Origin: Escherichia phage ph0011
Sequence record: OP557969.1
DNA: 64,000 nt
Reading direction: 5' to 3' (one strand)
Below, piece by piece: positions 1,006-15,827 of the stretch (position 1 is the first letter of the stretch; each line of letters begins with the position of its first letter). The position numbers were made by a program, and so were the translations under genes. The notes under the pieces were generated by a model. That model was given only the letters and a program-made list of their open reading frames with translations, was not told where the DNA came from and made no database searches.

Positions 1006-1145
1006 GACAGGAAGATTATAGTTTAAATATATTATTAAGAAATATTAATGCGGATTATTGTGTATGGGTTAAGAATCGAGACATGATGTATTATGATTTT
1101 TATTTAGATTATGCCATCAAACGCTTTTTAAGAGAAGAATATTAA
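948..1145 (+). pseudogene. possible frameshifted 3' part of 610..1005
   Basis: Overlaps upstream ORF by 58 nt in another frame; QEDYSLNILL resembles a FamA core lacking F-Q. Confidence 0.3.
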
Positions 1146-1321
1146 TGAAAGTGGTTAATACAAAAGCAATAAATGATTTAAATGATTCTTTATTAGTAAG
1201 TATTAAGTTGTATTATAATATTCATTTAAAGGGTGGTATTAACGATTTTAGTTATTACTTAAGTGCAATATCACAAGAGCATTTAAATTATCAAGATCAT
1301 TTATTACATCCAAATCATTAA
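1145..1321 (+). CDS. small hypothetical protein (58 aa)
   Basis: Hand-translated ORF below track cutoff; TAATG overlap with upstream stop; fills gap before 1330. Confidence 0.3.
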   Translation: MKVVNTKAINDLNDSLLVSIKLYYNIHLKGGINDFSYYLSAISQEHLNYQDHLLHPNH

Positions 1322-1329
1322 GGCAAATT

Positions 1330-1890
1330 ATGAATGAGATAGAGTTATTATCACACAAGATTAGTACAATAGCTACAGTACTGAACAACAAAAATAAAGT
1401 ACATAGTTCCTTTTTAAGAATTAATAAAGTTGGTAGTAGTTTATATTTGGAAGTAAAAGCGGGTTTTGCAGGACAGTACAATGATAAAATCAAAGAAGAA
1501 GTTAAGGGAAATGAAGATGCTTTCATTGAGGTTTGTGCAACAGTTGGTTCAAATCCAATTTCAGTATCACCGTTAATGCGAAATGAAAATTCAGAATTTG
1601 ATTCCAGTTTCGAAGGTTATTTGTGGTACAATTATGGTGATAATTATTTTATATATCAGAATTCCAAAACGAATTATAGTGAAGAAGGTATAAAATTCAT
1701 TGATCCTTACAATGAAGCAGAAGTATTTCAGAAATCCCTAATATACAATACAAATCAAATGAAGTATCTTATGTTGTTTAGTACAATGCATTTGAATCCA
1801 TTGAAAGATAATTTAAAATTTTTCATTCGTTTAGAATTAGTTGATATTACTTATGATCTTTTAATCCAAGGAAGTAGTTATGAAGTATAA
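1330..1890 (+). CDS. FamA (FQxS) paralog
   Basis: 186-aa ORF; core EAEVFQKSLIYNTN. Confidence 0.75.
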   Translation: MNEIELLSHKISTIATVLNNKNKVHSSFLRINKVGSSLYLEVKAGFAGQYNDKIKEEVKGNEDAFIEVCATVGSNPISVSPLMRNENSEFDSSFEGYLWYNYGDNYFIYQNSKTNYSEEGIKFIDPYNEAEVFQKSLIYNTNQMKYLMLFSTMHLNPLKDNLKFFIRLELVDITYDLLIQGSSYEV

Positions 1891-2194
1891 AATGATGTAT
1901 ACACCATCATTAGTATATGTAGAATTAGAATCAAATGATAATGGGTGGAATTTCATTAAACATATCGATACCAATACATGGTACATGGCTCACTTGGATA
2001 ATAATGTGGTATCAGACCATTTTATGGATTTCAATATCTTAGATGAAGATGAATTTTTCCAAATGCAATTGGTGCTTGACACAAATGGTTTTGATATGGT
2101 ATTATTAAAGAATATACAGAAAGCTGTTGATGAATTAATAGCTGAACATAATTTGAGCGAAATAAGGATTAGTTATGACCTCGAAGTACTGTGA
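1880..2194 (+). CDS. FamA (FQxS) paralog, short variant
   Basis: 104-aa ORF; core EDEFFQMQLVLDTN. Confidence 0.7.
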   Translation: MKYKMMYTPSLVYVELESNDNGWNFIKHIDTNTWYMAHLDNNVVSDHFMDFNILDEDEFFQMQLVLDTNGFDMVLLKNIQKAVDELIAEHNLSEIRISYDLEVL

Positions 2195-2525
2195 GTTTGA
2201 AATTAATAAGTTAAGAGAATGGTTTTATAATATTGAAATTGAGGCCATTCCTTATCATACATATGAACAAAGTGATTTACAATGTATTGATATTAGGGAG
2301 TTGTACAAATATTATCAAAGTGCGTTAGAGATGCATAAATTATTTTTGAGTACGGATTTCTTTATGCAGTATAATTTTGAGGAATATAATAATTATAACT
2401 TAGTACAGAAATACGTAGTAGCAAAGTACATGTACATTCAAGGTATTAAAGGTTGTATTGAATTCAATACTGTTCTTGCTTTAGTTGAGGTAATTTTATG
2501 TACAGCATGTGCATATCTAATTTAG
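2175..2525 (+). CDS. hypothetical protein
   Basis: 116-aa ORF in gene chain; only weak FamA-like bits (YQSALEMHKLF, DFFMQYNF). Confidence 0.5.
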   Translation: MTSKYCEFEINKLREWFYNIEIEAIPYHTYEQSDLQCIDIRELYKYYQSALEMHKLFLSTDFFMQYNFEEYNNYNLVQKYVVAKYMYIQGIKGCIEFNTVLALVEVILCTACAYLI

Positions 2526-3016
2526 AGTTTAGTTTAGATGCAGCCTTTAAATTTGCACATAAGATAGAAACAATATATAGTTTTTTTAGTGAAGTTTATG
2601 AAGTTTGTGCTAAACGATATATCGATACAATAGACATTAGCAATAAGTTCGATGTATGGCACAAAACAATCCAAAGCAAAAAGCAGTGTGCAGCAGTTTT
2701 TAGTGTTTTATCATTTAATCCCAGCAATTGTTACCCAGAGAAGCATGAACGTTATCCCAATGACGACATGTGGTTTGTGTACAAAGAAGATGCTGATATG
2801 TCGTCATTTGAAGTTCCTGATAATTTTGATATCAGTGATTTAACAGAAGAGTGGTGGTTCCAGCAGAATTTAGTACATGATGATATTGATTTATTTTTCT
2901 ATATCGTGTTCAAAATACTTTATCACAACAATATAGTTAAAGATAGTGTATCGTTTTCATGTCTATATATTGATGAGTTGTTCGAAGATATCAAAAATCT
3001 CAAGCCTGTATCGTAA
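2498..3016 (+). CDS. FamA (FQxS) paralog
   Basis: GAGG RBS; N-term FSLDAAFKFAHKI; core TEEWWFQQNLVHDD. Confidence 0.75.
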   Translation: MYSMCISNLEFSLDAAFKFAHKIETIYSFFSEVYEVCAKRYIDTIDISNKFDVWHKTIQSKKQCAAVFSVLSFNPSNCYPEKHERYPNDDMWFVYKEDADMSSFEVPDNFDISDLTEEWWFQQNLVHDDIDLFFYIVFKILYHNNIVKDSVSFSCLYIDELFEDIKNLKPVS

Positions 3017-3031
3017 GATATGGGCTTTTTT
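3002..3031 (+). terminator. weak hairpin + T-run
   Basis: aagcc(3002-3006)/ggctt(3023-3027), large loop, then tttttt. Confidence 0.4.
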
Positions 3032-3033
3032 GT

Positions 3034-3062
3034 TTGACTCAAGTACAAATGAATGGTACAAT
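3034..3062 (+). promoter_or_regulatory. sigma70-type promoter
   Basis: TTGACT - 17 nt - TACAAT, 25 nt upstream of the 3088 start. Confidence 0.55.
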
Positions 3063-3087
3063 GTGAAATCATTTTAAGGAGAACCCT

Positions 3088-3636
3088 ATGGAAAATTTTC
3101 AAATACCACAAGATTACGATACAGCGAAAGAGATGGTACACAAGGTTCATTACATTTTTAATGAATTAATTATTGCAAATTCATCCTGTATGCAAATTGA
3201 GTTAAAGGGTATTAATAGTGAAGAAGTTTTTTTGGCTTCTCCAAGTTCAATTATTCCGTTGTATGGTATGGACCGTTTATGGTTCATGAGAGATGCACCA
3301 ATTGACAGGTACAAAATACAAAAAAAATCAGAGAATGATTTTCTTTATGATTATTTTAATATTTCATTACAAGCACACGATATAAGTACAATGAGTGCAG
3401 AGGAATATTTTCAGCACAGTACAGTGTATAGTCCAGAAGAAATCTTTGTTGTTATGCTTGTTGCAAAATTGAGTACTGTTGATTTTGGGACGTACCCAAA
3501 TAAATCATTCAAGATTATTATTCCTGCATTTGTTGATCTTTATGATTTCATTGTGCACAAGAAAGAAAGTACAGTGTACGATATGCAGCGTTCAAATATC
3601 AGTTTAATTGCAGTAAGTGCAGGGGAATTAAAATGA
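3088..3636 (+). CDS. FamA (FQxS) paralog
   Basis: AAGGAGA RBS; core SAEEYFQHSTVYSPEE. Confidence 0.8.
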   Translation: MENFQIPQDYDTAKEMVHKVHYIFNELIIANSSCMQIELKGINSEEVFLASPSSIIPLYGMDRLWFMRDAPIDRYKIQKKSENDFLYDYFNISLQAHDISTMSAEEYFQHSTVYSPEEIFVVMLVAKLSTVDFGTYPNKSFKIIIPAFVDLYDFIVHKKESTVYDMQRSNISLIAVSAGELK

Positions 3637-4241
3637 ACATAGACCAATTAATGAAGTACAGTAAAAGTACAGTTCCAGTACTAAGTAAAGTGTTAGATGC
3701 CTTCACTGCTAAGTACCCTGAAGGTTCAGAGTTAAATATTCCTTTTACTACACCAGGGATTGATGATACTTACATGGTACACATTGGTAGTTCAGGTATT
3801 GTTTTGAAGCAAAAGTACAGTGATAGTGAATATTATGGTTTGAAACTGGATAAAATTTCAGGAGAGAAGACACCTTTTGAGTTTTGGATTCCGAATAGTA
3901 TTGAATCATGGAATACACATATTAATAAGAGAGACGAAGGTAATATTTCTCTTGTAAATTATAAGGAAAAAAGATTTGACGTATTTTATTATTACAGTAC
4001 AGATACGTTTCCAGAAGAGATTTATTTAAATTCAGAGATGTATGAAGATATTGAATCATTTTTCTTTCAGTTATCATTGGTACATGATATCATGCCATTG
4101 CAAGCGTTCAGGGATGAAATAAATTTAGCGAAAGAGATTTCGGATATGTTACCTGAATTTAGTGTTCTTTATGGTAGTAGAGCTTTACCTGAAAATGTGT
4201 ATATAGAATTTATTTCTTGTGTTCAAGGATTGAATATATAA
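3633..4241 (+). CDS. FamA (FQxS) paralog
   Basis: ATGA overlap; core IESFFFQLSLVHD. Confidence 0.75.
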   Translation: MNIDQLMKYSKSTVPVLSKVLDAFTAKYPEGSELNIPFTTPGIDDTYMVHIGSSGIVLKQKYSDSEYYGLKLDKISGEKTPFEFWIPNSIESWNTHINKRDEGNISLVNYKEKRFDVFYYYSTDTFPEEIYLNSEMYEDIESFFFQLSLVHDIMPLQAFRDEINLAKEISDMLPEFSVLYGSRALPENVYIEFISCVQGLNI

Positions 4242-4242
4242 T

Positions 4243-4437
4243 ATGAACGAAGATGATATCAAAAAAAGGCATACGAAGTTTGAACTGCTCCCTGACGAAA
4301 TCCACATTGATATAGTTAATTTTAACATCAAAGCGTCCTTGCATCCTATATCACAAGATGATTTTGACAACAGAGTGCTTAACATAGTGGTGATTTTGTG
4401 CTATAATCATTTCAGTGAATATTTTAACAAAAGATGA
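4243..4437 (+). CDS. small hypothetical protein
   Basis: 64-aa ORF fitting exactly between neighbours. Confidence 0.45.
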   Translation: MNEDDIKKRHTKFELLPDEIHIDIVNFNIKASLHPISQDDFDNRVLNIVVILCYNHFSEYFNKR

Positions 4438-4444
4438 GGTACAT

Positions 4445-4966
4445 ATGTATCAGCACACGTACAATACATCATATGAGTATGGGTACAGCATTTTGAAGAT
4501 TATCAAAGCGTTAGAGGGTGGATTGCTTAGTCATAAGTACACCAGAGTAGGTGACAATTGGTTCAGAAATGATGATGATGAGTTCAGAAGTCATAAAATC
4601 GTTTACAGTAATAATTACAGTGCTAATTATCTTCAGGATGTGGTTATGTGCTTTGAATACGTGTTACAGTTCAGGGGTTCCATCAGACCAGAGTTAAGAG
4701 AACACATGTACATTCGATACCTACCAATGCTTGAGGATGAGAAATCAATATTCAATTCAGTACACCACAGAGTACGAGATAGAACATTCAGGAATATTTT
4801 GGAAGATGAAGCTGCCTATTTTCAGCGATCATTGATTGATGCTCCTGATGTGTTACAGATGCAGAATTTGTATAATGTATTAGATGCGAACATCGATACT
4901 GATATCTTTTTTTCCTTAAGTGATTATGAAACATGTTTGGAAGATTTAAAGGAAATAGGATTATGA
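4445..4966 (+). CDS. FamA (FQxS) paralog
   Basis: ATG after GAGGT (track ORF 4415..); core DEAAYFQRSLIDAPD. Confidence 0.75.
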   Translation: MYQHTYNTSYEYGYSILKIIKALEGGLLSHKYTRVGDNWFRNDDDEFRSHKIVYSNNYSANYLQDVVMCFEYVLQFRGSIRPELREHMYIRYLPMLEDEKSIFNSVHHRVRDRTFRNILEDEAAYFQRSLIDAPDVLQMQNLYNVLDANIDTDIFFSLSDYETCLEDLKEIGL

Positions 4967-5307
4967 GTGGATTTACAGTATATATAGTAAACGTCAGTAC
5001 AGATGGTAGTTTAATTGAATTTGATGTAGTTGATGACGATGATAATGCATATGGTATTAAGGTGCAAGACAATGTTGTGCAGTTCAGTACAAGAACAAAT
5101 TACGAAAATCCAGTTCCTGTTCCTAATTTCATAGAAGACGAAGCTGTACGATTCCAATACGAAACTGCCTTTGACAATATAGCGATGCATATTATTATGC
5201 AACACAGTTTAGTTCAATTAGTTCCTTTATTTAGACAAAATGTATATGTACATGAATTGTCGATTAATAACGTTCAAAGTTCCGTTTTGTTCGGCACAAA
5301 TATGTAA
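4963..5307 (+). CDS. FamA (FQxS) paralog, variant
   Basis: ATGA overlap (track ORF 4933..); core EDEAVRFQYETAFD. Confidence 0.65.
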   Translation: MSGFTVYIVNVSTDGSLIEFDVVDDDDNAYGIKVQDNVVQFSTRTNYENPVPVPNFIEDEAVRFQYETAFDNIAMHIIMQHSLVQLVPLFRQNVYVHELSINNVQSSVLFGTNM

Positions 5308-5316
5308 GGAAGGATA

Positions 5317-5859
5317 ATGAGTTTATTAGATACCATAGAAAAAGACAGAAGTGCCATTAAGAGATTAAAAAATCTGGTTCTGTGTATTGTGAACAACGTT
5401 GAAAAGTTTGAAGTCCAAGGAAGAATTGGTGATATTTCACATACAGGAATAAAATCCCTGAAGTCAGATTTATTAATTCATAAGGAAGATAAATTATTAT
5501 TTGTATTGAGTTCAGATTTATTGGTTGCAAGTAATGGTTTCAATTCGGTATCAACACAAGATGGTAGTACTGGATTATATCTATCACAGGGTGTACAGAC
5601 GAATGAACATAAGTGTTTTAGTTCAAGAGTACAGAATCCCTTTAAGTTTAATACAGAACAAGCTACAGAGCTTTTTGAGGCTTCAGAAGAGATGTTATTT
5701 CAGTACAAAATGGTCTATACAGATTTTGAAATACGATGCCTATACGCTGTTAAGCATTATGTACAAGAGTTCGAAGATTTAAATTATCTTTTAGTTCGAA
5801 CGAATACGAAGAACATTGACATATTAGAAGATTACATTTCAACAGTTGTTAGTGTGTAA
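5317..5859 (+). CDS. FamA (FQxS) paralog
   Basis: AAGGAAGG RBS; core SEEMLFQYKMVYTD. Confidence 0.75.
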   Translation: MSLLDTIEKDRSAIKRLKNLVLCIVNNVEKFEVQGRIGDISHTGIKSLKSDLLIHKEDKLLFVLSSDLLVASNGFNSVSTQDGSTGLYLSQGVQTNEHKCFSSRVQNPFKFNTEQATELFEASEEMLFQYKMVYTDFEIRCLYAVKHYVQEFEDLNYLLVRTNTKNIDILEDYISTVVSV

Positions 5860-5863
5860 TGGG

Positions 5864-6034
5864 ATGTTGCTTATGAAGGAGTTATTTGATGAACAGTTCA
5901 ATGTATTAATGGATAATATTCTTTTTTATAGCCTTGGTAGTAAACGAGGAAATCGTGCTTACAATATAGATTACATATTAACTGTGTTGAGTTCACAGTA
6001 CACATATGCTGTGCAGAGGACATATTATGAATAG
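5864..6034 (+). CDS. small hypothetical protein
   Basis: Track ORF 5846..6034 trimmed to first ATG after upstream stop. Confidence 0.35.
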   Translation: MLLMKELFDEQFNVLMDNILFYSLGSKRGNRAYNIDYILTVLSSQYTYAVQRTYYE

Positions 6035-6212
6035 TTATAGTGGTGTTGCTAAGGAGAAGTTAAATTGTAGTTTAGATTTTGGCTTAAATGATTTTCTTAC
6101 GTGCACAATGTTCAGGAATGATGATTATGAACAATCCGTAATTTCGTTGTATAGATATTTTGAAATAATTTACACAAGATACCTTAGAAGGTTAGAGGGA
6201 TTGGAATTATGA
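6027..6212 (+). CDS. small hypothetical protein
   Basis: Track ORF 6006..6212; ATG after AGAGGA. Confidence 0.4.
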   Translation: MNSYSGVAKEKLNCSLDFGLNDFLTCTMFRNDDYEQSVISLYRYFEIIYTRYLRRLEGLEL

Positions 6213-6427
6213 TTTATGAACAAAAAGTACCAAGTGGTTATAGTGTTGATGGTTTTGAATTCATGATGGATTTGGTTTTAAAGAATACATTAGTAGTACA
6301 CCGTGCATTACCGGACCATGTAGATAGTGCGGTTCAACGAATAATGAATGTATACGAGATGACGAGTCGAAAGCTTTGTGCAATGAAAAGGATTGAAGAA
6401 ATCAAGCGTTCTAGGATGAATAATTAG
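6209..6427 (+). CDS. small hypothetical protein
   Basis: ATGA overlap with upstream ORF; 72 aa. Confidence 0.5.
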   Translation: MIYEQKVPSGYSVDGFEFMMDLVLKNTLVVHRALPDHVDSAVQRIMNVYEMTSRKLCAMKRIEEIKRSRMNN

Positions 6428-6567
6428 AGACGTTTCGTATGATGTATTCAAACGTACAATAAAACAATACTATATAACTTTTTATAATTGATATTTTTTA
6501 AAAAATACACAATCACAACGTGCTCCTTTTATTGGAATTTACCTTATTAATTATAGTTGAGGGGAAG

Positions 6568-6945
6568 ATGGAAATGAAATATAAAGATTTTCATATAGGG
6601 ACATGGATGTACACTGGTGAGTTTATTACGTGCTGTAATTTATACAAGCGTGATTTAAACTACTCAAGGGAGAAGGTTATAAAGTTCGCAGATTCACAAT
6701 TTTATTTTATGGAGTTAAGTACTGGAATTCGTGTTAAATCAACCGTTATGCTGGATTATACAGTTCTGGATGAGGCACAATTATTTCAGGAGTCATTAGT
6801 ATTTGATAAGAAGTACAACTGTACATTAGAAGAGATAGTTGAAATCCAGCGTAGGATCAAATTTATTCACAAGGATTGTATCGATAAATGGTGTAAAACT
6901 GGTGAAACTAATTTTAGTAATTATTTCAATCTAGGGGAAGAGTGA
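6568..6945 (+). CDS. FamA paralog, short FDKKY subclass
   Basis: ATG after GAGGGGA (track 6520..); CCNL.K.D; core DEAQLFQESLVFDKKY. Confidence 0.8.
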   Translation: MEMKYKDFHIGTWMYTGEFITCCNLYKRDLNYSREKVIKFADSQFYFMELSTGIRVKSTVMLDYTVLDEAQLFQESLVFDKKYNCTLEEIVEIQRRIKFIHKDCIDKWCKTGETNFSNYFNLGEE

Positions 6946-7301
6946 TGGAATTTGATTTTGTAATATCAGTACATTCTTTCAAGAATAGTTTTCAGTACTT
7001 TTGTAATTTAAACAAAGGTGATTTAATGCACAGTGCAAATGAGTATATTCATTACACTGCTGGTAAATTTACATTTATTGATTACGATTCATTACAGTAT
7101 CCACATCAGGATATGCCGGACTTTACATTAATGGATGAGGCCGAACTATTCCAAGCTGCATTAGTATTCGATAAGAAGTACTTGTGTACACTAGAAGAAG
7201 TAATTGCCATACAAAATGAAATAAAAGAGTATGCTGCTTTGAATAAATCCAATGTAAGTATTAATCAAGAATACAAATTCAATATAGGAATTACAGAATG
7301 A
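6945..7301 (+). CDS. FamA paralog, short FDKKY subclass
   Basis: TGATG overlap; core DEAELFQAALVFDKKYLCTLEEV. Confidence 0.8.
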   Translation: MEFDFVISVHSFKNSFQYFCNLNKGDLMHSANEYIHYTAGKFTFIDYDSLQYPHQDMPDFTLMDEAELFQAALVFDKKYLCTLEEVIAIQNEIKEYAALNKSNVSINQEYKFNIGITE

Positions 7302-7663
7302 CATTTGATTATTCGATATACGTTTGCAAGTCCAGAACGGGGTGGGATTTGTGCTGTAATCTTGTCAAGGGTGACTCGGAACATGAGTTGAGTTTATATA
7401 TTCAGTACTCGGATTTGTGTTTTAATTTTATTGATGTATTGTATGATGACTTCGACTATAACTCTGAAAGTATTACAGATTATACAGTACTGGATGATGC
7501 TGAACTATTTCAAGCTTCTTTGGTGTTTGACAAGAATAAGTACTCATGTACAATAGAAGATATGATTTTTATACAAAATGAAATGAAGAGATATGTCAAA
7601 GAAAACACCTTTGATACATCTACACCAACAACAAGTAATTATTATTTCAATACAGGTGAGTAA
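7298..7663 (+). CDS. FamA paralog, short FDKKY subclass
   Basis: ATGA overlap; core DDAELFQASLVFDKNKY. Confidence 0.8.
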   Translation: MTFDYSIYVCKSRTGWDLCCNLVKGDSEHELSLYIQYSDLCFNFIDVLYDDFDYNSESITDYTVLDDAELFQASLVFDKNKYSCTIEDMIFIQNEMKRYVKENTFDTSTPTTSNYYFNTGE

Positions 7664-7664
7664 T

Positions 7665-8006
7665 ATGGAATATGATTTTTCTATTTATATGCCTATAATT
7701 AGTTCACAAGATGTGTATTGTAATCTTAATAAAGGTGATTACGAACACAAAATGGATCAGTACATTAAATTTAATGGTGCGTACTTTAGCTTCATTGATT
7801 ATCAGGCCAAAGGATCAGTTGTAGAAAATATGAAAGACTATACAACAGTACATGGTGAGGCTGAAATATTTCAAGAGTCATTAATATTCGACAAGAAGTA
7901 CTTGTGTACTCTAGAGGAAGTAATTGAACTCCAACAGAAGATGAAAGAATATAGAAGAATCTACACAGAGACTGGTTCCAAAGATAGGTATCGTTTTAAG
8001 CTATGA
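7665..8006 (+). CDS. FamA paralog, short FDKKY subclass
   Basis: ATG after AGGTGAG (track 7593..); core GEAEIFQESLIFDKKYLCTLEEV. Confidence 0.8.
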   Translation: MEYDFSIYMPIISSQDVYCNLNKGDYEHKMDQYIKFNGAYFSFIDYQAKGSVVENMKDYTTVHGEAEIFQESLIFDKKYLCTLEEVIELQQKMKEYRRIYTETGSKDRYRFKL

Positions 8007-8188
8007 ATAAAAAAGAACAAATGGAATCATTCATGAATACAATACTTCGACGATTCGTAATTGATATTAGACATAACAACATTACCAGGAATGACATGTG
8101 CTTCGGTACATATAATATTAGTGAATTGTATATAGCTAATATTCACATGGTGTACCGAGATTATATCCAGACACTACACGGGAGTTGA
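8003..8188 (+). CDS. small hypothetical protein
   Basis: ATGA overlap; 61 aa. Confidence 0.45.
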   Translation: MNKKEQMESFMNTILRRFVIDIRHNNITRNDMCFGTYNISELYIANIHMVYRDYIQTLHGS

Positions 8189-8189
8189 T

Positions 8190-8660
8190 ATGAGTTTTGA
8201 AAGAGCATTAGAAATTGCTAAGTTAATTGATGTATGTAAAAAAGAAATAGTGCTCAACAGACTCAATGGGTATCTATTCAAGGAAGGTAAATCTTATTGC
8301 CGAATGATATACGATGACAGTAGTGAATATATTCACATGTATGAAGAAAATCTTGATGAATCTGAAACAACACTCACTGGGTGTGATGTTAATCTGGAAG
8401 ATAATTACATGTACTTCTGTCGTGATGCTGATATTTTAATACAAGAAACATCATATCAAACTGGGAATCCAGAGGTATATCTTCCATATTCAGTACTGGA
8501 TAATGACTGGGGAAGTGAAGAGTTCTACTTCCAGCAGAATACTATCTACGATGAAGATGTACTTGACAAGCTTGTCATTCTGTGGTACTTTAAGAACACT
8601 GATACTCCTAACTTCTATATAGATTTGGATCTACTAAGAGTTATTAATGAGGATATATGA
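8190..8660 (+). CDS. FamA paralog, ~150-aa SALE/WYFK subclass
   Basis: N-term MSFERALEIAKLI; core SEEFYFQQNTIYDEDVLD; WYFK. Confidence 0.8.
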   Translation: MSFERALEIAKLIDVCKKEIVLNRLNGYLFKEGKSYCRMIYDDSSEYIHMYEENLDESETTLTGCDVNLEDNYMYFCRDADILIQETSYQTGNPEVYLPYSVLDNDWGSEEFYFQQNTIYDEDVLDKLVILWYFKNTDTPNFYIDLDLLRVINEDI

Positions 8661-9097
8661 GTTTAGTAAGTGCACTTGAACTGGCACACAAAATACACAA
8701 CTTCCATGATAAAATAAAAAGTGGGTTTTATGGTGATAACGTAAGTGAATTTGGTAATGAGTATTATCTATCAAGTTCAAATACATACGCTGATGATATT
8801 TTACTTATGGGTCATGATAAAGACAATACTATACAGTACTCTTCATGTAGTCAATATGCTAGTTTTATGGTATATATTCCAGGAACTAAGATTACTTTTG
8901 ACACATCAAATACACCTGTTGACTTCGGGGTACTTGATGGTCCATGGGGTACTGAAGAGTATTACTTCCAACAGAGTCTTATTTTTAGCCAAGAGATGCT
9001 TGATACCTTGGTTGTGTTGTGGTACTTTAAAGAATTGAATTTTGAACCATTCTTTCTTGACTGGGGAGCATGTGAGTATTTAAGTTCAGGAGAATAA
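8657..9097 (+). CDS. FamA paralog, ~150-aa SALE/WYFK subclass
   Basis: ATGA overlap; MSLVSALELAHKI; TEEYYFQQSLIFSQEMLD; WYFK. Confidence 0.8.
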   Translation: MSLVSALELAHKIHNFHDKIKSGFYGDNVSEFGNEYYLSSSNTYADDILLMGHDKDNTIQYSSCSQYASFMVYIPGTKITFDTSNTPVDFGVLDGPWGTEEYYFQQSLIFSQEMLDTLVVLWYFKELNFEPFFLDWGACEYLSSGE

Positions 9098-9099
9098 TA

Positions 9100-9567
9100 A
9101 TGTCATTGCGAAGTGCATTGAAAGAAGCAAAGAAGATCCATAATTACATGATTATGGTACAAGAAGGTTCCGTGCCTGGTGTATATAAAACATCTGATAC
9201 TGAATTTTTCGTAAAAGATCGAGATGATTATGATGAGTCAGAGATATGTGCAGAAACGTTAGTACTGCACATTGATACGGATGATACTGATGACTGTGAA
9301 TATCAGATGCACAATCAATACCTTAGTTATTATAGGGATGAAGATATTATAATTTACACTCCTGATTACGATGATGATAACATAATCATTCCGTATTCAG
9401 TTCTGGAAGGTCCATGGGATAGTGAAGAATATTATTTCCAGCAAAGTACTGTGTATAATGAAGATGTTTTAGATGTTATTGTAATTATGTGGTACTTTAA
9501 AAGTATTGATTCTGACAGTTTCTATTTCGATTATGAATACGTAGAGAATACTGTAGGGGGAAGATAA
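9100..9567 (+). CDS. FamA paralog, ~150-aa SALE/WYFK subclass
   Basis: MSLRSALKEAKKI; SEEYYFQQSTVYNEDVLD; WYFKSID. Confidence 0.8.
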   Translation: MSLRSALKEAKKIHNYMIMVQEGSVPGVYKTSDTEFFVKDRDDYDESEICAETLVLHIDTDDTDDCEYQMHNQYLSYYRDEDIIIYTPDYDDDNIIIPYSVLEGPWDSEEYYFQQSTVYNEDVLDVIVIMWYFKSIDSDSFYFDYEYVENTVGGR

Positions 9568-10010
9568 TGTCATTACAAAGTGCTCTTGAAAAAGCAAAAG
9601 AACTTCATGCATATATTGAAGATATTAAGGCTGGGAAGTTCGAAGAAATATACAAAGCCGAGAATGGTAACTACTACAAGGATAGTGATTTTGCTACAAC
9701 TACAGTTATTCTTGGGTTGAATTCCAAAAGTCCAGTAGACTTTTCTCAATACAATCCAGATGCAGAATTTATTAGTTATGCTTATGGTGGCGAAATCCGT
9801 TTTTATAATCGCAGCAGACCTTTAAAATTGAACTTTGAAGTACTGAAAGGTCCGTGGGATAGTGAAGAGTACTACTTCCAGAATAGAACTTTGTATGATG
9901 ATGAAGTTCTAGATACTTTAGTTATTATGTGGTACTTTAAAAGTATTGATAGTACAAGATTTTATTTGGATTATGAATATGTACGTGAAGTTTATAAGGG
10001 TAAACGATGA
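9567..10010 (+). CDS. FamA paralog, ~150-aa SALE/WYFK subclass
   Basis: TAATG overlap; MSLQSALEKAKEL; SEEYYFQNRTLYDDEVLD; WYFKSID. Confidence 0.8.
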   Translation: MSLQSALEKAKELHAYIEDIKAGKFEEIYKAENGNYYKDSDFATTTVILGLNSKSPVDFSQYNPDAEFISYAYGGEIRFYNRSRPLKLNFEVLKGPWDSEEYYFQNRTLYDDEVLDTLVIMWYFKSIDSTRFYLDYEYVREVYKGKR

Positions 10011-10321
10011 AATTCTTATACAATATTCAGTACATTCCGGGTACAATTAGTTTAATGTATTTCTTCGACCATGATAATTTCCAACATCTTGCAGTTAGGA
10101 GATGTAATGAATCTTTAATGATCGAATATCTTCACGATTGTGATTATCTTCCTGACTTACTTGAATGTGATTACAGAGATGAGCATGAATCATTTCTGTT
10201 TCAGGAATCACTTGTATGGGACAAGAGAATAAATTTTTATGTTTTACTTGAGATACAAAAACAAGTAAAGTACTACTGGGATTACTTAATCACCCAAGAC
10301 TATATAGAGATTGAAATATAA
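10007..10321 (+). CDS. FamA paralog, short subclass
   Basis: ATGA overlap; core EHESFLFQESLVWDKR. Confidence 0.75.
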   Translation: MKFLYNIQYIPGTISLMYFFDHDNFQHLAVRRCNESLMIEYLHDCDYLPDLLECDYRDEHESFLFQESLVWDKRINFYVLLEIQKQVKYYWDYLITQDYIEIEI

Positions 10322-10764
10322 TGTACGAAAGTGATCTTAAGCACGCTGAAGAATTAGTTAATATAGTAAAGTTCTTTCAAAATAATGTAAAGTACTTAGA
10401 CTATAAAGGGGCTTATATTAGTACTATAAGTGTTGGTACAGATATTCTAGGATTAGGCAATGAATATAAGTACGAGTCCCATGATTATGACTTGGAATTC
10501 AAGTACTTCGTATGGGATTCTGGAACTTTCTATTCTATAGATGAAGATGGCAAATATTTTGAATTCACAGAAGAAGAAGTTCTATTCTTAAATTCAGAAG
10601 ATGCTTACTTTCAATATAGTACTATATACCCAAACGCGGCGTTAAGAGCTTTAGTAGTTTTTAATGCATTTCTGAAAGAGAACTTTAACAATTCTATATT
10701 CATTGATTTAGATTATGTATATGAACTAAATCAGGTGATATATATGGAGTCCAGAAAAGAATGA
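10321..10764 (+). CDS. FamA paralog
   Basis: TAATG overlap; MYESDLKHAEELV; core SEDAYFQYSTIYPN. Confidence 0.75.
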   Translation: MYESDLKHAEELVNIVKFFQNNVKYLDYKGAYISTISVGTDILGLGNEYKYESHDYDLEFKYFVWDSGTFYSIDEDGKYFEFTEEEVLFLNSEDAYFQYSTIYPNAALRALVVFNAFLKENFNNSIFIDLDYVYELNQVIYMESRKE

Positions 10765-11216
10765 GTTATGAAAGTGCACTAAAAAAGGCTAATGATATTC
10801 TACGCGTTGTTCAGTTCTTAAAGGACTATCCTGTTTATGTAGATGATGAACGCAGAGAAGTTTCTAATGGCACGAAGATTACAATTGATTCTTTATTTGA
10901 CACTAGCAGCAACAACTGTAGTACTATTGAATTAGCATACGATTATATTTCATTGAACAGAAAATATGATGAAGTTACGATAGAGCGTCATGAGGATGAA
11001 GAATCTTTTAAAATTTCTGATATTTTATCCCTGAGTACTGAAGAAGGGTACTTCCAGGGAAGTACTCTTTATAATGAAGAAACACTTGACAATCTATGTA
11101 CATTTAGTGTACTATATCAGAAGTCAGTACTGGATATATTTTATCTAGACACTGAAAAACTTGATAGGTTAGTTGATTTCGTTACTATAGAAGAGGCATC
11201 CTTTGAGAAAAATTAA
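10761..11216 (+). CDS. FamA paralog
   Basis: ATGA overlap; MSYESALKKANDI; core TEEGYFQGSTLYNEETLD. Confidence 0.75.
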   Translation: MSYESALKKANDILRVVQFLKDYPVYVDDERREVSNGTKITIDSLFDTSSNNCSTIELAYDYISLNRKYDEVTIERHEDEESFKISDILSLSTEEGYFQGSTLYNEETLDNLCTFSVLYQKSVLDIFYLDTEKLDRLVDFVTIEEASFEKN

Positions 11217-11739
11217 CATTAATGATTATGATGCATTACAAGATTTATCAAAAAAGATTCGCACTATCGTACCAGTACTGAAGAAATGCAGTACTGGATT
11301 AATCGATCCTAGTACAGTTATTAGTGAGAAGTACAATTTTCATAAACTGTTACAAGGGAATGGTGCATTCCAGAAGTGTGAGATACGTGAGACACACGTA
11401 ATTGATACATCATTGTTTTCTATTGGTGCACCTGTGTCGAATAATACTATTTTCCTAGACAACGCTGGAAATATTCAACAATTAACATTTAAGAAAAGGA
11501 AAAAGAACAATAACATTGGTGTGTATGCGATGAAGTGGGGTCAACCTGATTTGAAGCGTGAAATTCACATCCCTAAGTACAATTACAATGCATTTGACGA
11601 ACAGTGTTTTCAACTATCGTGTACTGACCCTGACTATGCTATCATTCAGTTCTATATGGAATTGCAGATTGCATTTAACAGTAATTTGTATATTAACTTA
11701 TTGGCGATGAACATCGATGAAGTATTCAAAAACATTTAA
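11203..11739 (+). CDS. FamA paralog
   Basis: TTG start after GAAGAGG; core FDEQCFQLSCTDPD. Confidence 0.65.
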   Translation: MRKININDYDALQDLSKKIRTIVPVLKKCSTGLIDPSTVISEKYNFHKLLQGNGAFQKCEIRETHVIDTSLFSIGAPVSNNTIFLDNAGNIQQLTFKKRKKNNNIGVYAMKWGQPDLKREIHIPKYNYNAFDEQCFQLSCTDPDYAIIQFYMELQIAFNSNLYINLLAMNIDEVFKNI

Positions 11740-11935
11740 TCGAATTGAATACATGAGAACTGTGAGTGCAGTGTGGGACATATGGTTCACTACTAAACCA
11801 AAAATGGATTACCATGACTTTAAGCTATTGTTCTTCGTTGGCTCTAACAAACAGGATGTTGCAATGAAGGGTTATATTCAGCACTTACAGGAACTAATCC
11901 AGAAGAGAATATATGAAAATAATAGACCAAGATGA
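11717..11935 (+). CDS. small hypothetical protein, FamB (LFYLGT)
   Basis: 72 aa; core HDFKLLFFVGSNKQDV..IQHLQELIQK. Confidence 0.55.
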   Translation: MKYSKTFNRIEYMRTVSAVWDIWFTTKPKMDYHDFKLLFFVGSNKQDVAMKGYIQHLQELIQKRIYENNRPR

Positions 11936-12104
11936 TATTGCTAAACTATTCAATATATATTCTTCTAAAATGATGCAAATCGACTCATATAGTACTGAAT
12001 TCAAAGAATTAAAAGTACTGATGTATTTGGGTACACAACATCAGGAACAAGTTGTTAAAGAATATATTGATTCATTACAGAAGGATATACGTTATGTACA
12101 ATGA
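11913..12104 (+). CDS. small hypothetical protein, FamB (LFYLGT)
   Basis: 63 aa; core EFKELKVLMYLGTQHQEQVV..IDSLQKDI. Confidence 0.55.
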   Translation: MKIIDQDDIAKLFNIYSSKMMQIDSYSTEFKELKVLMYLGTQHQEQVVKEYIDSLQKDIRYVQ

Positions 12105-12648
12105 GCTTGACTTAGCATTTGAACGTGTAAAAATCTTCATTGAAACTTATCTTATGCACAAAACTATATTGAAAACAAAAGGAATATGGTTCACTGATAA
12201 ATTTCTTACTATGGCTAAGAGAGATGGAATGGAACATCTTTACTGTACAGATAGTGCCAGAATTTCAGTACTGAATTATGATGAAAGTGTATCATCTGGT
12301 ACTAGTTTAATTTCGACATATAATGATAATATTACTAGTATTATGTATACTAAAAATTGTTCAAATGTTTCTGTATATAAAAACTGTGATAGTTCATTAT
12401 CGTACAATATCGATCAGTACTTTTATCCTAATACAGAAGAAAACATCTTTCAAAATAGTCTTATATTGGATGATACATCTAATAAATGTATATATCTTTA
12501 TAATAAATTAAAAGAGTACATTGATAACAGTTCAATTAGAACTAATACATTCAGTGTTTCTGTTTTAAATTATAATAAGGAAGATGTGTTTTATTATACA
12601 GAAATTGAAAGAATACATACAATGTATAAGGAACTACTATGTTATTAA
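12094..12648 (+). CDS. FamA paralog
   Basis: ATG after AAGGA (track 12052..); ELDLAFERVKIF; core TEENIFQNSLILDD. Confidence 0.7.
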   Translation: MYNELDLAFERVKIFIETYLMHKTILKTKGIWFTDKFLTMAKRDGMEHLYCTDSARISVLNYDESVSSGTSLISTYNDNITSIMYTKNCSNVSVYKNCDSSLSYNIDQYFYPNTEENIFQNSLILDDTSNKCIYLYNKLKEYIDNSSIRTNTFSVSVLNYNKEDVFYYTEIERIHTMYKELLCY

Positions 12649-13241
12649 ATGCAAATAAATGTTGTAGTGCTGATGTTCATGTATATTTTAAGAAATTAGT
12701 CAATGATATCATCTATATGCAAGAAATCATTTATCACAAAAGAATGGACTTAGAAAAAGCATTAGCTCAGTTCTCTTTTAATCTAGATGGTGATATATCT
12801 TTAGATGGTGATGGGTTACGTATAACATTAGACAGCAATTCCAATAGAGTTTTCTTTTGGATAGATAATAAATTATGTTCCTCAATTTGTCGCACTTTTT
12901 ATAACCCTATTTCGGACTTGTATCAATTGGTTTATTCGAAAGGTGCGGTTGAAGCATCATATGGTGATAGTTTTGCACTAGGGAAGTCCATTCCATATAT
13001 GCAAACATTTGATATTGAATTAGTCAGTACTGATGAAGATGTAATGTTCACAAATGATCTAACGATGCAGCGTGAATCTGCAATGAGATATATAACAAAT
13101 TCAATGCATACCTTCTTTAAAATAGCAGAATTTGATAATGTATATATATCAAATGTAAATATTTTCACTGACTTGTGTCAGTTTTTGAGAAATATTTTTG
13201 ATTTTGATGAAAGATATTCTAAGTTTTATACTGAGGTTTAA
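12639..13241 (+). CDS. FamA-like, decayed core
   Basis: 200-aa ORF; DEDVMFTNDLTMQ at the expected position. Confidence 0.6.
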   Translation: MLLNANKCCSADVHVYFKKLVNDIIYMQEIIYHKRMDLEKALAQFSFNLDGDISLDGDGLRITLDSNSNRVFFWIDNKLCSSICRTFYNPISDLYQLVYSKGAVEASYGDSFALGKSIPYMQTFDIELVSTDEDVMFTNDLTMQRESAMRYITNSMHTFFKIAEFDNVYISNVNIFTDLCQFLRNIFDFDERYSKFYTEV

Positions 13242-13246
13242 ATCAA

Positions 13247-13606
13247 ATGAATACCATTAGTATTACGTACTACACAACTAAAAAATACGTTTGTTGTTTA
13301 CTTTCTTTGAAGACTAATGATGATATGTTCAATAATGTGGCATATACATTAGAATTGTCAGAAGATGGTTTTCAATGTCATGAAGCATACTCAAATACAC
13401 GTGAAGATACAATTGATACTACGCTCATGCAAGAGGATGAATTATTTCAAGAAAGTTTAGTATGGGATAAAAAGTACTATTGTGATTTTGATTTTCTATG
13501 TTTAATCCAGAAAGAAATGAAAAGGATCTTCGACAATTATCCAGTGAAGAGATTAAGTTCTGGACCAGAGCAGTACAGGAGGATGATATTCCGATATGAA
13601 GACTAG
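13247..13606 (+). CDS. FamA paralog, short subclass
   Basis: core QEDELFQESLVWDKKYY. Confidence 0.75.
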   Translation: MNTISITYYTTKKYVCCLLSLKTNDDMFNNVAYTLELSEDGFQCHEAYSNTREDTIDTTLMQEDELFQESLVWDKKYYCDFDFLCLIQKEMKRIFDNYPVKRLSSGPEQYRRMIFRYED

Positions 13607-13931
13607 ATTAGTAAAAGTAATGTATGCTACACATATTAAACTACTTCTTGTGAAATTTGATTATAATAAAAAACACAATGAGTTTTATACTTTAATTCGT
13701 AATGAAGAATCATTTTCATTGAGATGTAATAATATACCAATGAAAATAAACGATTACACCACATTAGATGAGGGAGAACTATTCCAAGAATCATTAGTTA
13801 TTGATAGTAATATAAAAATAGATATAGAAATTATTAAGCAGTACCAGACGTTATTAAACAAAATTATGAATTGTTATCCCTGTAGAATAGAAGGTAATAT
13901 GCAATTTAAATCGAAAATGTACGAGTTGTGA
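13596..13931 (+). CDS. FamA paralog, short subclass
   Basis: core DEGELFQESLVIDS. Confidence 0.75.
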   Translation: MKTRLVKVMYATHIKLLLVKFDYNKKHNEFYTLIRNEESFSLRCNNIPMKINDYTTLDEGELFQESLVIDSNIKIDIEIIKQYQTLLNKIMNCYPCRIEGNMQFKSKMYEL

Positions 13932-13938
13932 GGTTTTT

Positions 13939-14475
13939 ATGTTAGATAAAATAATCAATACTGGAACACCATACAACCATCTTAAGTTGGATACATTTGA
14001 GTCAGCATTAAGTACTGCCCAAGATATAATTGATATTATTAAGTACATTAAAGAAAATAAGATAAAATGTTTAAAAAAGATAAATCATTCAATGTACAAA
14101 GATGACGACATTCATGTATCAGTTCTAAAGCCAAAAGATAAAGTAAATGGGAGAGATTTTTATAATAATAGTGGACAGTATGAATGCGAATATGACCCAG
14201 AATTTCGTGGCGGGTTCATGTGCTACAGTAAAAATGACACATCACATATTGAGATACGTACAATAAACGGTGGTATAACTAGATTGGAGTTCATTGATAT
14301 AGTTTTAAATCAGGAAAATTACTTCCAACAAACATTAATTTATCCTTCTTATTATGTAGGAGTACTATTCATGTACAAGTACTTCTATGTGCACTTAAAT
14401 GAAGATTTCTATATAGACTTAGAAGATTACCAATTAGTATGGGAAGAAATGATAGAACTTCGCAATAACACTTGA
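13939..14475 (+). CDS. FamA paralog
   Basis: GTGAGG RBS; FESALSTAQDIIDI; core NQENYFQQTLIYPS. Confidence 0.75.
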   Translation: MLDKIINTGTPYNHLKLDTFESALSTAQDIIDIIKYIKENKIKCLKKINHSMYKDDDIHVSVLKPKDKVNGRDFYNNSGQYECEYDPEFRGGFMCYSKNDTSHIEIRTINGGITRLEFIDIVLNQENYFQQTLIYPSYYVGVLFMYKYFYVHLNEDFYIDLEDYQLVWEEMIELRNNT

Positions 14476-14501
14476 CCCCCACCAAATCTTTGTGATATAA
14501 T
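14472..14501 (+). promoter_or_regulatory. early-type sigma70 promoter (TGTGATATAAT class)
   Basis: TTGACC ... tgTGtGATATAAT; -10 at 14496-14501. Confidence 0.65.
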
Positions 14502-14534
14502 CTCTTTAAATTAATTGTAAAGGGTTATATCGCA

Positions 14535-15008
14535 ATGTCACCAGACCTCAATTTCGATAATGCACAAAAAATCGCACAATATATCATTAAACTTCATAAG
14601 TTTCTCATAACAGTTAAAGAGGATATAATTCTACCCAAAGGTAAACTTTATGTGGGCAAAAATTATTTGTCATATCGTGGAAATTTATTGTATACTACAG
14701 ATGAAAATTTCTGTGGTATTCGTGTAATTGACGATGTACCAACAGGAAACTTTATCTCATATTGTTTCCGTACATCTAGTCGTTTTAAGTACTATCATCC
14801 TAGATATGATGATGAACATGACACATTTGATGTTAGGACAGAAGAAGATTTTTTCCAGAACAGTACTTTACACGATGAGAGAATTGTGTTGAGTTCTACA
14901 ATTTTTACAGTTCTTAAAGATGAACTCAACGACGCAAATGATAGATTCTATATGGATTTAAACTTCGTAGATGAAATTATGGAGTACATGGAGACGAATG
15001 GTTTATGA
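14535..15008 (+). CDS. FamA paralog
   Basis: LNFDNAQKIAQYI; core TEEDFFQNSTLHDE. Confidence 0.75.
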   Translation: MSPDLNFDNAQKIAQYIIKLHKFLITVKEDIILPKGKLYVGKNYLSYRGNLLYTTDENFCGIRVIDDVPTGNFISYCFRTSSRFKYYHPRYDDEHDTFDVRTEEDFFQNSTLHDERIVLSSTIFTVLKDELNDANDRFYMDLNFVDEIMEYMETNGL

Positions 15009-15475
15009 TTACAACAACATATGATTACGATGGTGTTTTGGAATTTGCATCTAACATTCATCGCATTGCTAAGGAGTTCAGAAGTCCCGAACCGTTTGGT
15101 GGAATGTTCCATTATGACATGTTCAGTTCACCCAAAGGAAAACTTGCCTATAAAAATAATAAGGGTAATCAAGTATATGCTGAAATCTTTGACGATAATG
15201 ACTTTCACTACAAAGCCGAATACATTTCATATTGTCCTGGGTCTGATTTGAAGATTTATATTGATAGGGATAAAGAAAATGTATTTGTTCCATATACTGA
15301 TTTAGTCTTCATGTCAGAGGAAATGTACTTTCAGGAATCATTGATTCATGATATAAAAGTTCTTAATGCTATATTATTATATGGTACACTACTTAATTAT
15401 TACAAATACAATCAAAGATTCTTTTTAGATTTAGAAGTATACTATATATGCGTGGATTATTTGAATGCAAAATAA
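15005..15475 (+). CDS. FamA paralog
   Basis: ATGA overlap; core SEEMYFQESLIHD. Confidence 0.75.
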   Translation: MITTTYDYDGVLEFASNIHRIAKEFRSPEPFGGMFHYDMFSSPKGKLAYKNNKGNQVYAEIFDDNDFHYKAEYISYCPGSDLKIYIDRDKENVFVPYTDLVFMSEEMYFQESLIHDIKVLNAILLYGTLLNYYKYNQRFFLDLEVYYICVDYLNAK

Positions 15476-15827
15476 GAAAACAATTCAGTACATCACTGAT
15501 GGCAATGAATACTTTGCTTCAAGATATGAATTCAGTGAGGGTCATTTCGTAACTTATATACCTGAATATAATCAGTTTTATCTCCAGATTTACCAAAAAG
15601 ATTCCAATATAAATGAATTATATACCGAAATAAAAATCCCAGATTATAGTACTTTATCAGAAGAGGAATTGTTTCAGGAGAGCACGATCAGTACTGAAGA
15701 TGTATACGAACTAATTGAATATCAGAAGGTACTTAAATATTTCCATAAATCACATGATATAGAAATGGATATGGTTAAACCGTGGCGTTATAATACATAT
15801 GAGGTAAATTATGTTAGAAATGATTAA
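15465..15827 (+). CDS. FamA paralog, short subclass
   Basis: core SEEELFQESTISTED. Confidence 0.75.
   Translation: MQNKKTIQYITDGNEYFASRYEFSEGHFVTYIPEYNQFYLQIYQKDSNINELYTEIKIPDYSTLSEEELFQESTISTEDVYELIEYQKVLKYFHKSHDIEMDMVKPWRYNTYEVNYVRND

Follow-up and report, generated by a model that had tools for sequence, protein, structure and literature searches.

Short DNA matches in a tandem gene array of an Asteriusvirus-type phage: a probable product of an old conserved protein core and codon bias

Genes at the locus

The window (the whole stretch of 64,000 nucleotides that was analysed, from Escherichia phage ph0011, record OP557969.1) is part of a jumbo phage of E. coli that is of the Asteriusvirus type (121Q/PBECO4-like), and its nucleotide identity to Asteriusvirus phages is 82-90%. 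Much of its first part is taken up by a tandem array near the left genome end, the members of which form one orphan superfamily with the core motif E-E-x-[YFL]-F-Q-x-S in a motif scan (Table 1). With at least three adjacent homologous genes on the same strand, the array is a tandemly duplicated multigene family. We note that the small genes run densely on the same strand, with overlapping stop and start codons. The array does not lie within the terminal repeat, a placement we rejected by reference to fEgEco12, whose termini have been experimentally confirmed and whose corresponding blocks are at 37-45 kb, outside the 21-kb repeat. The Sharanji record begins within the array.

A first-pass annotation of this DNA had singled out two blocks of four genes, and these are real: A1-A4 (6568-8006) and B1-B4 (8190-10010), with a 61-aa ORF between them. 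Each of A1-A4 matches PHROG 15629 (E 1e-31 to 1e-53) and each of B1-B4 matches PHROG 9317 (E 1e-50 to 1e-61), and the blocks are two sub-families inside the larger array. The A-type conserved core reads ...E-L-F-Q-x-S-L-V-F-D-K-K-Y..., the B-type core ...E-E-Y-Y-F-Q-x-S...V-L-D..I-M-W-Y-F-K.... An HMM built from the A-type alignment matches 16 ORFs and one from the B-type alignment 20, the two sets partly overlapping. In a profile-profile comparison of the two types a 17-column motif alone aligns, with 49% probability, and the part shared across sub-families is limited to a core of 10-20 residues. The HMM and PHROG cross-matches suggest, short of proving homology, that the A and B types are distantly related. 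The 61-aa ORF showed no family membership by HMM, Pfam or PHROGs. The array proteins are probably non-structural, and searches against Pfam, PADLOC and solved structures returned no significant match for them.

Table 1. Position of the array, of the genes in blocks A and B, and of the segments discussed in the text.
Feature	Coordinates	Strand	Remarks
Tandem array	3..25606	+	one orphan superfamily, about 30 small ORFs all on this strand (motif scan, HMMs)
A1	6568..6945	+	125 aa; A-type, PHROG 15629; orthologues 62-78% aa
A2	6945..7301	+	118 aa; A-type; first copy of the 40-nt patch, 7167-7206
A3	7298..7663	+	121 aa; A-type; missing from sister contig L014
A3 start	7298..7315	+	crossover site of the L014 one-gene deletion; 13/18 nt identical to A4 start, 7665-7682
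A4	7665..8006	+	113 aa; A-type; second copy of the 40-nt patch, 7887-7926
61-aa ORF	8003..8188	+	between the blocks; travels with A4
B1	8190..8660	+	156 aa; B-type, PHROG 9317
B2	8657..9097	+	146 aa; B-type
B3	9100..9567	+	155 aa; B-type; 27-nt patch, 9484-9510
B3 C-terminal core	9399..9543	+	80.7% over 145 nt to 9839-9983 in B4; top paralogous DNA match in the array
B4	9567..10010	+	147 aa; B-type; 27-nt patch, 9924-9950

The conserved core and the patches

Two short DNA matches had been reported within the blocks, and both lie at the coordinates given for them: the 40-nt patch of A2 and A4 agrees at 37/40 positions and the 27-nt patch of B3 and B4 at 27/27 (Table 1). The top paralogous DNA matches of the array all fall within blocks A and B. 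Paralog alignments also bear out the observation that the N-terminal parts of these genes are far more divergent than the C-terminal parts. In AlphaFold models (pLDDT 84-86) the variable N-terminal part is predicted as beta-sheet and the conserved C-terminal core as helical, with both patches in the best-predicted helices; the 27-nt patch in B3 codes for I-M-W-Y-F-K-S-I-D, at the end of predicted helix 121-135. Between orthologues, dN/dS is 0.03-0.26 in the core (B1 alone reaches 0.42) and mostly higher ahead of it (0.12-1.1). Both patches lie within a core under purifying selection. The E-x-x-Y-F-Q and L-F-Q motifs of the core resemble TEV and 3C protease sites; a cleavage site was rejected, the motif lying in both models inside a helix (pLDDT ~95) of the folded core and not in a linker.

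Matches of this kind are far above the expectation for random DNA because the genes are homologous, and we therefore compared them with a codon null in which the proteins are kept and synonymous codons are resampled from the window's codon usage. Under this null the 40-nt A patch is unremarkable (P=0.18) and the 27-nt run in B is of borderline significance (P=0.022 across the six B pairs); the sole excesses are the best 145-nt windows (P=0.001 for B, P=0.013 for A). In all 12 within-block pairs, conserved residues share identical codons about as often as codon usage predicts. Synonymous identity in block A is 0.63 in the core and 0.61 outside it, with 0.51-0.53 expected; the excess is small, alike in both parts and therefore not specific to the C-terminus. 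In block B the excess is found only in the core (0.60 against 0.49 expected; 0.44 against 0.46 in the non-core part). Amino-acid identity plus codon usage accounts for the A patch. As for the B patch, its codons are mostly common to the other B paralog groups, with 26/27 positions matched in B0, a fifth B gene of some relatives, and with TGG TAC TTT near-universal across the groups; where the PBECO4-class B3 and B4 depart from these codons, their states seem to be derived. Since the patch codons are largely common across B groups, retention explains the B match.

Age of the paralogs

The four genes of each block had been described as recent duplicates, a view that their divergence contradicts. 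Within blocks the paralogs are only 29-47% identical in amino acids and 49-59% in nucleotides, and synonymous sites are near saturation (dS from 0.56 to saturated). For all eight genes, other Asteriusvirus phages carry positional orthologues that are 62-97% identical in amino acids and in conserved order, and in 45-nt windows across all eight the best orthologue is always closer than any paralog. We thus find none of the marks of recent segmental duplication, neither near-identical DNA over whole units (the best local match is the 145-nt segment in Table 1) nor copies that lack separate orthologues in relatives, and in no 45-nt window do we find paralogs closer than orthologues, as concerted evolution would have it. 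The further proposal that N-terminal parts are swapped finds no support in trees of the pre-core region, which recover every orthologue group with 100% bootstrap; most of these groups are monophyletic even in core-only trees. Conserved order and flanks exclude the idea that the apparent orthologues are independent duplications.

Evidence bearing on gene conversion

Ongoing gene conversion had been put forward to account for the patches, and neither patch calls for it, given that the A patch fits the codon null and the B-patch codons are mostly group-wide. Nor is it seen among close relatives: across ten sister contigs, 96-99.6% identical to the window, the 78 segregating variants include no paralog-derived tract, and the 11 that match a paralog only are scattered singly and differ in donor.

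Old and occasional conversion is another matter. It is possible, though in our judgement somewhat improbable, that short-tract ectopic exchange between adjacent paralogs homogenised parts of the C-terminal core. The candidates are an exchange between B3 and B4 near the 3' end of this core and, in Ecwhy_1, a transfer from A1 to A2; the 27-nt patch of B3 and B4 would then belong to, or adjoin, such a tract, and this reading can coexist with divergence under constraint. The last ~60 nt of the B4 core resemble B3 more than they do the B4 allele of the PBECO4 class and so form a candidate old conversion tract. In favour of exchange, the synonymous excess of block B is core-specific, its best 145-nt window exceeds the codon null (P=0.001), and NJ trees of the core alone fail to recover B4 (25% bootstrap) or A2 (5%) as monophyletic, both groups standing at 100% in the pre-core region. 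The W-class B4 allele, which is that of the window, Turkey3, Ecwhy_1 and SP27, has 19 core states in common with B3, where the PBECO4-class B4 has 7 (P=0.029, uncorrected), and a three-taxon asymmetry of 12 to 3 is seen for B3 against B0. These asymmetries are specific to the nearest paralog (B4, which shows one with B3, shows none with B1 or B2) and are absent from the pre-core region. An unbiased scan flags two cases only, W-class B4 with B3 (alignment columns 186-196, 23/30) and Ecwhy_1 A2 with A1 (24/27, against 17 for the A2 consensus). Over the first half of the core, A1 and A2 are 0.87-0.91 identical in Turkey3 and Ecwhy_1 against 0.74-0.78 elsewhere. For A2 and A3, a core-only permutation picks out 9 polymorphic sites in succession that agree (global P=0.03).

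Against this, all of the P values are nominal (about 0.02-0.04), drawn from many comparisons over 38-53 codons, the patch codons are those already common to the B groups, and nothing comparable segregates among the sister contigs. The asymmetry of Ecwhy_1 A2 is also present against A3 (in an alignment judged by eye) and may therefore be ancestral retention. A core-restricted permutation for B3 and B4 gives P=0.12; we rejected the whole-gene GENECONV-like result for the same pair (P=0.007) because that test is biased by rate heterogeneity. The core anomalies fit some old exchange between paralogs and are not predicted by pure divergence under constraint, but short alignments and saturation could also yield them; if the core has undergone ectopic conversion at all, the events were rare and old and their tracts short.

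Three further candidates were rejected. The window A2 carries CTA...GTA, as A4 does, where most A2 have TTT...GTT; the A2 haplotype difference among sisters, however, spans 7059-7293, with states at 7208, 7223 and 7236 that A4 lacks, and the middle GAG of A4 was not transferred; the pattern is better read as an allelic patch than as an A4-to-A2 micro-conversion. A B0-like tract in the window B3 was suggested by 5 of 6 W-specific changes within 27 nt that match B0; so small a number of changes is not enough, and B0 is missing from the window. Finally, P/Q triplet scans found paralog-like sites enriched in the core, with a similar result in the reciprocal control (19/35 against 15/39); conservation alone predicts such enrichment.

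Gain and loss of genes among relatives

The expectation that copy number varies among relatives by unequal recombination was borne out in three ways, although the mechanism of each rearrangement is one that we infer. The first is a 367-nt in-frame deletion in sister contig L014, where the A3 start is fused to the A4 body at TGATT, a microhomology common to the A3 and A4 starts (Table 1). This deletion was seen in one assembled contig only, and a search for its junction in IMG/VR and JGI metagenomes did not find it. The second is an extra module, present in 13 of about 35 records and flanked by 85-bp repeats: in Turkey3, G17 and 121Q these are direct repeats of the A2 start, 83-96% identical, and the first 85 nt of A2 in the window (about 6945-7029) are the segment so duplicated. 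The third is a cassette of A4 and the 61-aa ORF, found in 7/33 phage records, which alternates with B0. Relatives are thus polymorphic in copy number, differing by whole units that are joined at corresponding points of adjacent units.

Such changes, arising in close relatives, are what one would cite for ongoing recombination in this lineage that leaves the C-terminal module in place and moves N-terminal modules from one paralog to another. We consider this distinctly unlikely. The breakpoints of the structural variants are at gene starts or boundaries, outside the core, and therefore whole genes were removed or replaced with their combinations of N- and C-terminal parts intact; none of the 20 loci compared carries an N-terminal part on another paralog's core, and the same eight genes are present in 9 of the 10 sister contigs.

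Still less probable is the idea that the patches are nucleotide-level elements (an RNA structure, a regulatory site or a recombination site) within coding sequence. Some synonymous positions are indeed invariant across paralogs and phages, for example in TGG TAC TTT and GAA GAG TAT TAC TTC, but the invariant codons are mostly just the preferred ones, promoter-like and terminator-like sites are not in excess, and orthologues share identical codons no more often in the core than elsewhere (0.80 against 0.81 for B; 0.81 against 0.89 for A, where the core is the more divergent part). As for recent tandem duplicates with very fast N-terminal divergence, neighbours do resemble one another in length and strand and have DNA-level matches, but we give this virtually no credence, since separate orthologues of all eight genes exist in phages that are 10-18% diverged in DNA, an orthologue map that already refutes the idea, and both the paralog dS and the pre-core trees stand against it.

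Discussion

We have found that the quoted DNA matches are probably the product of an old conserved protein core and codon bias, and that the two blocks are old sub-families that evolve by birth and death. The age and orthology of the genes, the pattern of selection, the codon null and the structural variants are matters of observation. The duplications predate the divergence of the sampled members of the genus, and purifying selection has since held the core while the rest of each gene drifted. The patches are probably places at which a pair of paralogs has gone on coding for identical core residues; with the AT-richness and codon bias of this genome, the same residues often receive the same codons. 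The array itself probably changes mainly through birth and death and cassette exchange: recombination at the starts or boundaries of genes would remove, add or replace them whole, and co-circulating phages would exchange alleles. We note that matches of 25-40 nt between divergent paralogs in AT-rich phages should be read as motif plus codon bias and are no evidence of recent exchange. By-products of the analysis are a map of variation for a ~30-gene orphan family among Asteriusvirus phages, which covers three polymorphic slots, a clear case of an in-frame deletion that removed a single gene at a 5-nt microhomology, and two confident structure models for a family without known relatives that makes up a noticeable share of a 350-kb genome.

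It is conceivable, though we hold it to be unlikely, that the array is a host-interaction repertoire, serving takeover or anti-defence, with a fixed helical scaffold, variable beta-sheet surfaces, and recombination in the core and at gene starts. If so, core conversions together with deletion, insertion and swapping of whole genes would generate lineage-specific repertoires. T4-like and other large phages have hyperplastic regions of small accessory genes, and SPO1 and T5 carry host-takeover gene clusters near their genome ends. The present locus resembles these in its dense, same-strand small orphan genes, its content, which varies between close relatives, and its breakpoints at gene boundaries; it differs in that most of its genes are one family, and the likeness is one of gene layout.

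An array of this kind and its reading as a tandem duplication had already been noted in 121Q, and the history of the present array is one of ordinary birth-and-death evolution of a gene family. In 2017 the array of 121Q was described as a tandem duplication (mBio, PMC5646251), a statement repeated for phAPEC6 (PMC7247149). 121Q is of the same genus and has the same kind of array, and genes of the window are orthologous to 121Q genes 365-391. Those papers give the array one sentence, without analysis, and the exact identity of their array with the present one is unproven; their term 'very similar' overstates the likeness of the members, which have a core of just 10-20 residues in common across sub-families and are 29-47% identical within a block.

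Gene conversion between tandem paralogs occurs in bacterial tuf genes and in pilin cassettes. Like these, the Asteriusvirus genes are adjacent homologues with a common conserved segment able to pair. Unlike them, they do not have paralogs closer than orthologues when this is tested, and show weak local hints only. Birth and death, as opposed to concerted evolution, is a general model for multigene families, due to Nei and Rooney. The array follows it in that each of the old paralogs has been retained, as an orthologue, in different lineages, single genes are gained, lost or replaced, and paralogs are not homogenised within genomes; it departs from the general model in that this is a phage locus, where co-infecting phages trade alleles and cassettes as well.

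Results

Blocks A and B within a larger gene array

Blocks A and B, each made up of four overlapping same-strand genes with a conserved C-terminal core, belong to a larger array of ~30 related ORFs (3-25606, all on the + strand) that was delimited with a motif scan and two HMMs and whose members have the motif E-E-x-[YFL]-F-Q-x-S in common; the best paralogous DNA matches of the array lie inside these two blocks. The window has a G+C content of ~32%, and 6000-14500 is matched by 35 phage records, every one from an Asteriusvirus jumbo phage of Escherichia or Salmonella (121Q, PBECO4, G17 and phAPEC6 among them), the closest being Turkey3 at ~90% identity. Our sister genomes are ten contigs, metagenomic or genomic, whose B3 protein is identical to that of the window and whose DNA is 96-99.6% identical to window positions 3100-15570. 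We note that the array (window 1-25606) maps to ~31-56 kb of fEgEco12 (PP777464.1), counted from a left end that was confirmed experimentally, just past the 20,993-bp direct terminal repeat of that phage, and that the Sharanji record begins within the array, between A1 and A2. We also note that the strongest self-matches of the whole window are ~264-nt internal DNA repeats of an 890-aa ORF with nine Big_2 Ig-like domains (55357-58029, - strand).

Both PHROGs matched by the blocks are of unknown function, and the proteins have no match in Pfam or PADLOC; in BFVD they match solely RaK2-like jumbo-phage proteins that are themselves uncharacterised. When 5.8 billion proteins were searched by word seeding, a method of limited sensitivity, relatives turned up almost solely on Asteriusvirus-like contigs, many of ~350 kb; profiles run exhaustively against 1.84 billion representatives returned 102. 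The paper on the phAPEC6 virion proteome names in its text no protein of the range gp42x-gp46x, which includes family member gp442c, weakly suggesting that the family is non-structural; we infer, as a working guess, that these may be accessory host-interaction proteins.

Table. Genes of the two blocks and associated modules
Feature	Coordinates	Strand	Description
A1	6568-6945	+	ORF, PHROG 15629
A2	6945-7301	+	ORF, PHROG 15629
A3	7298-7663	+	ORF, PHROG 15629
A4	7665-8006	+	ORF, PHROG 15629
61-aa ORF	8003-8188		between blocks A and B
B1	8190-8660	+	ORF, PHROG 9317
B2	8657-9097	+	ORF, PHROG 9317
B3	9100-9567	+	ORF, PHROG 9317
B4	9567-10010	+	ORF, PHROG 9317
Extra A-type module	L001 3091-3534		in Turkey3

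Age of the duplications

The first-pass annotation had read the blocks as recent duplicates, or as genes undergoing ongoing unequal recombination or conversion that preserves the C-terminal module and swaps N-terminal parts. The matches behind this reading are real (37/40 between 7167-7206 in A2 and 7887-7926 in A4; 27/27 between 9484-9510 in B3 and 9924-9950 in B4), as is the contrast between N- and C-terminal halves. A recent origin is nevertheless contradicted by low paralog identity and by orthology. Within-block pairs are 29-47% identical as proteins and 49-59% as DNA, paralog dS ranges from 0.56 up to saturation, and identical codons at conserved residues are about as frequent as codon usage predicts in 12/12 pairs. 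When ORFs from the corresponding locus in ten further phages were matched to the window, all eight genes had positional orthologues (62-97% amino-acid identity) in conserved order, and in 45-nt sliding windows the best orthologue was always closer than any paralog, including at the two patches. Taken together, these comparisons show that the duplications predate the divergence of the sampled Asteriusvirus members. Orthologue identities for B4, A3 and 10007-10321 are bimodal (~93-97% or ~69%); among these phages, then, deeply diverged allele classes are in circulation and each gene is reassorted separately.

The patches and sister variation

Under a codon null, in which the eight proteins and their alignments were held fixed and all codons redrawn 2000 times from window codon usage, the A2/A4 patch (P=0.18) is ordinary: its 13 identical residues, F-D-K-K-Y-L-C-T-L-E-E-V-I, have identical codons at 10, as expected from the codon usage of this genome. 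The 27-nt B3/B4 run is borderline among six pairs (P=0.022; P=0.005 at the exact site) and uses the preferred codon at 6/7 degenerate codons. Across the ten phages most of its codons are common to other B paralog groups, TGG TAC TTT being near-universal, and most relatives carry a fifth B gene, B0, that agrees with the run at 26/27 nt. The deviating states of PBECO4-class B3 and B4 alleles look derived, and the identity probably reflects mostly retention rather than lineage-specific transfer. Both patches fall in the best-predicted C-terminal helices of AlphaFold models (pLDDT 85.8 and 84.2). Within the core, dN/dS between orthologues is 0.03-0.26, with B1 up to 0.42, and before the core it is mostly higher (0.12-1.1); synonymous divergence between orthologues is not reduced in the core, which argues against a hidden nucleotide-level element.

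Nor do the ten sisters bear out ongoing conversion. The B patch is unchanged in all of them; the A2 patch varies (33/40 to 38/40 against A4) as part of a 230-nt haplotype difference with states missing from A4, and is thus allelic. The eight genes show 78 alternative alleles, of which 49 recur in orthologues of other phages, 18 in neither orthologue nor paralog, and 11 in a paralog only, scattered singly with differing donors. Such a pattern is that of mutation together with exchange of alleles between phages, and not that of ectopic conversion. Some sisters carry 13-18 differences in A1 and A2 and only 0-3 per gene elsewhere, the variant states mostly matching orthologues of other phages; short allelic replacements have a local hotspot here.

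Hints of old exchange in the core

The closest 145-nt windows are more alike than the codon null predicts, both in B3/B4 (117/145, P=0.001) and in block A (P=0.013), and a core-only GENECONV-type permutation gave P=0.12 for B3/B4 and P=0.03 for A2/A3, these and the other P values for core exchange being nominal, from many comparisons on 38-53 codons. The small identical-codon excess of block A is the same inside the core (0.63) as outside it (0.61), against an expected 0.51-0.53, and so is not a C-terminal effect, whereas that of block B is confined to the core (0.60 versus 0.49; non-core 0.44 versus 0.46). NJ trees of pre-core sequence recover every orthologue group at 100% bootstrap; core-only trees lose the B4 (25%) and A2 (5%) groups. 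W-class B4, the allele carried by the window, Turkey3, Ecwhy_1 and SP27, has 19 core states in common with B3, versus 7 for PBECO4-class B4 (P=0.029), an asymmetry absent toward B1 or B2 and before the core.

An unbiased scan for lineages that had gained similarity to a paralog flagged two cases only: the 3' end of the W-class B4 core (versus B3), just downstream of the 27-nt patch, and 16 codons in the first core half of Ecwhy_1 A2 (alignment columns 79-95), identical to its own A1 at 24/27 versus 17/27 for the A2 consensus. Of all our data, the latter makes the strongest candidate for ectopic conversion. Turkey3 A1 has the A2-type codons TTA ATG at this site. These observations hint at rare, short, old exchanges in the core.

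Copy number changes by whole genes

Copy number does vary among relatives, as the first-pass annotation predicted. One sister contig lacks A3: at its junction, ATGACATTTGAT followed by TTTTCTATTT, the first four A3 codons join the A4 body at the microhomology TGATT, an in-frame deletion of exactly one unit (367 nt) found in this one assembled contig and nowhere else among the databases searched. In thirteen records (including Turkey3, G17, phAPEC6 and 121Q), A1 and A2 are separated by an extra module that consists of a 53-74-aa remnant and a 123-aa A-type gene. On either side of it the initial 85 nt of A2 stand as direct repeats, 83-96% identical; if the two recombined, exactly the window arrangement, without the module, would result. 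The module is 100% identical in Turkey3, G17, phAPEC6, SHEFM2K, CRJP21 and Sharanji while their neighbouring genes are 10-15% different; it therefore moves between lineages, which indicates recent lateral exchange of a single cassette. A4 and the 61-aa ORF occur together in only 7/33 records; the others carry B0 (~57% identical to B3) in that slot, the swap breakpoints lying at the final codons of A3 and ~10 nt upstream of where B1 starts. All breakpoints of the copy-number variants are gene starts or boundaries; none lies within the conserved core and no N-terminal part was found joined to a foreign core in the loci compared, contrary to the proposed swapping between paralogs.

Instead of the B-type gene at 10321-10764, PBECO4, 121Q, G17, JP4, SD-15_S21 and UE-S1 have an unrelated 102-aa ORF; this is another alternative cassette of the same array. 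In UE-S1 (L004, 2003-2731), A1 and A2 are annotated as one 242-aa ORF, through a genuine read-through fusion or else through an error in sequencing.

Discussion

Of the original interpretation, copy-number change stands and recent duplication falls, and any conversion would be old and rare at most. A passage of Hua et al. (PMC5646251) already describes an array in 121Q as a tandem duplication, a statement repeated in a passage of the phAPEC6 paper (PMC7247149). Lying in a variable phage region, the array behaves as a standard birth-and-death multigene family in which old paralogs are kept as orthologues with a conserved core, and loss, gain and replacement proceed gene by gene.
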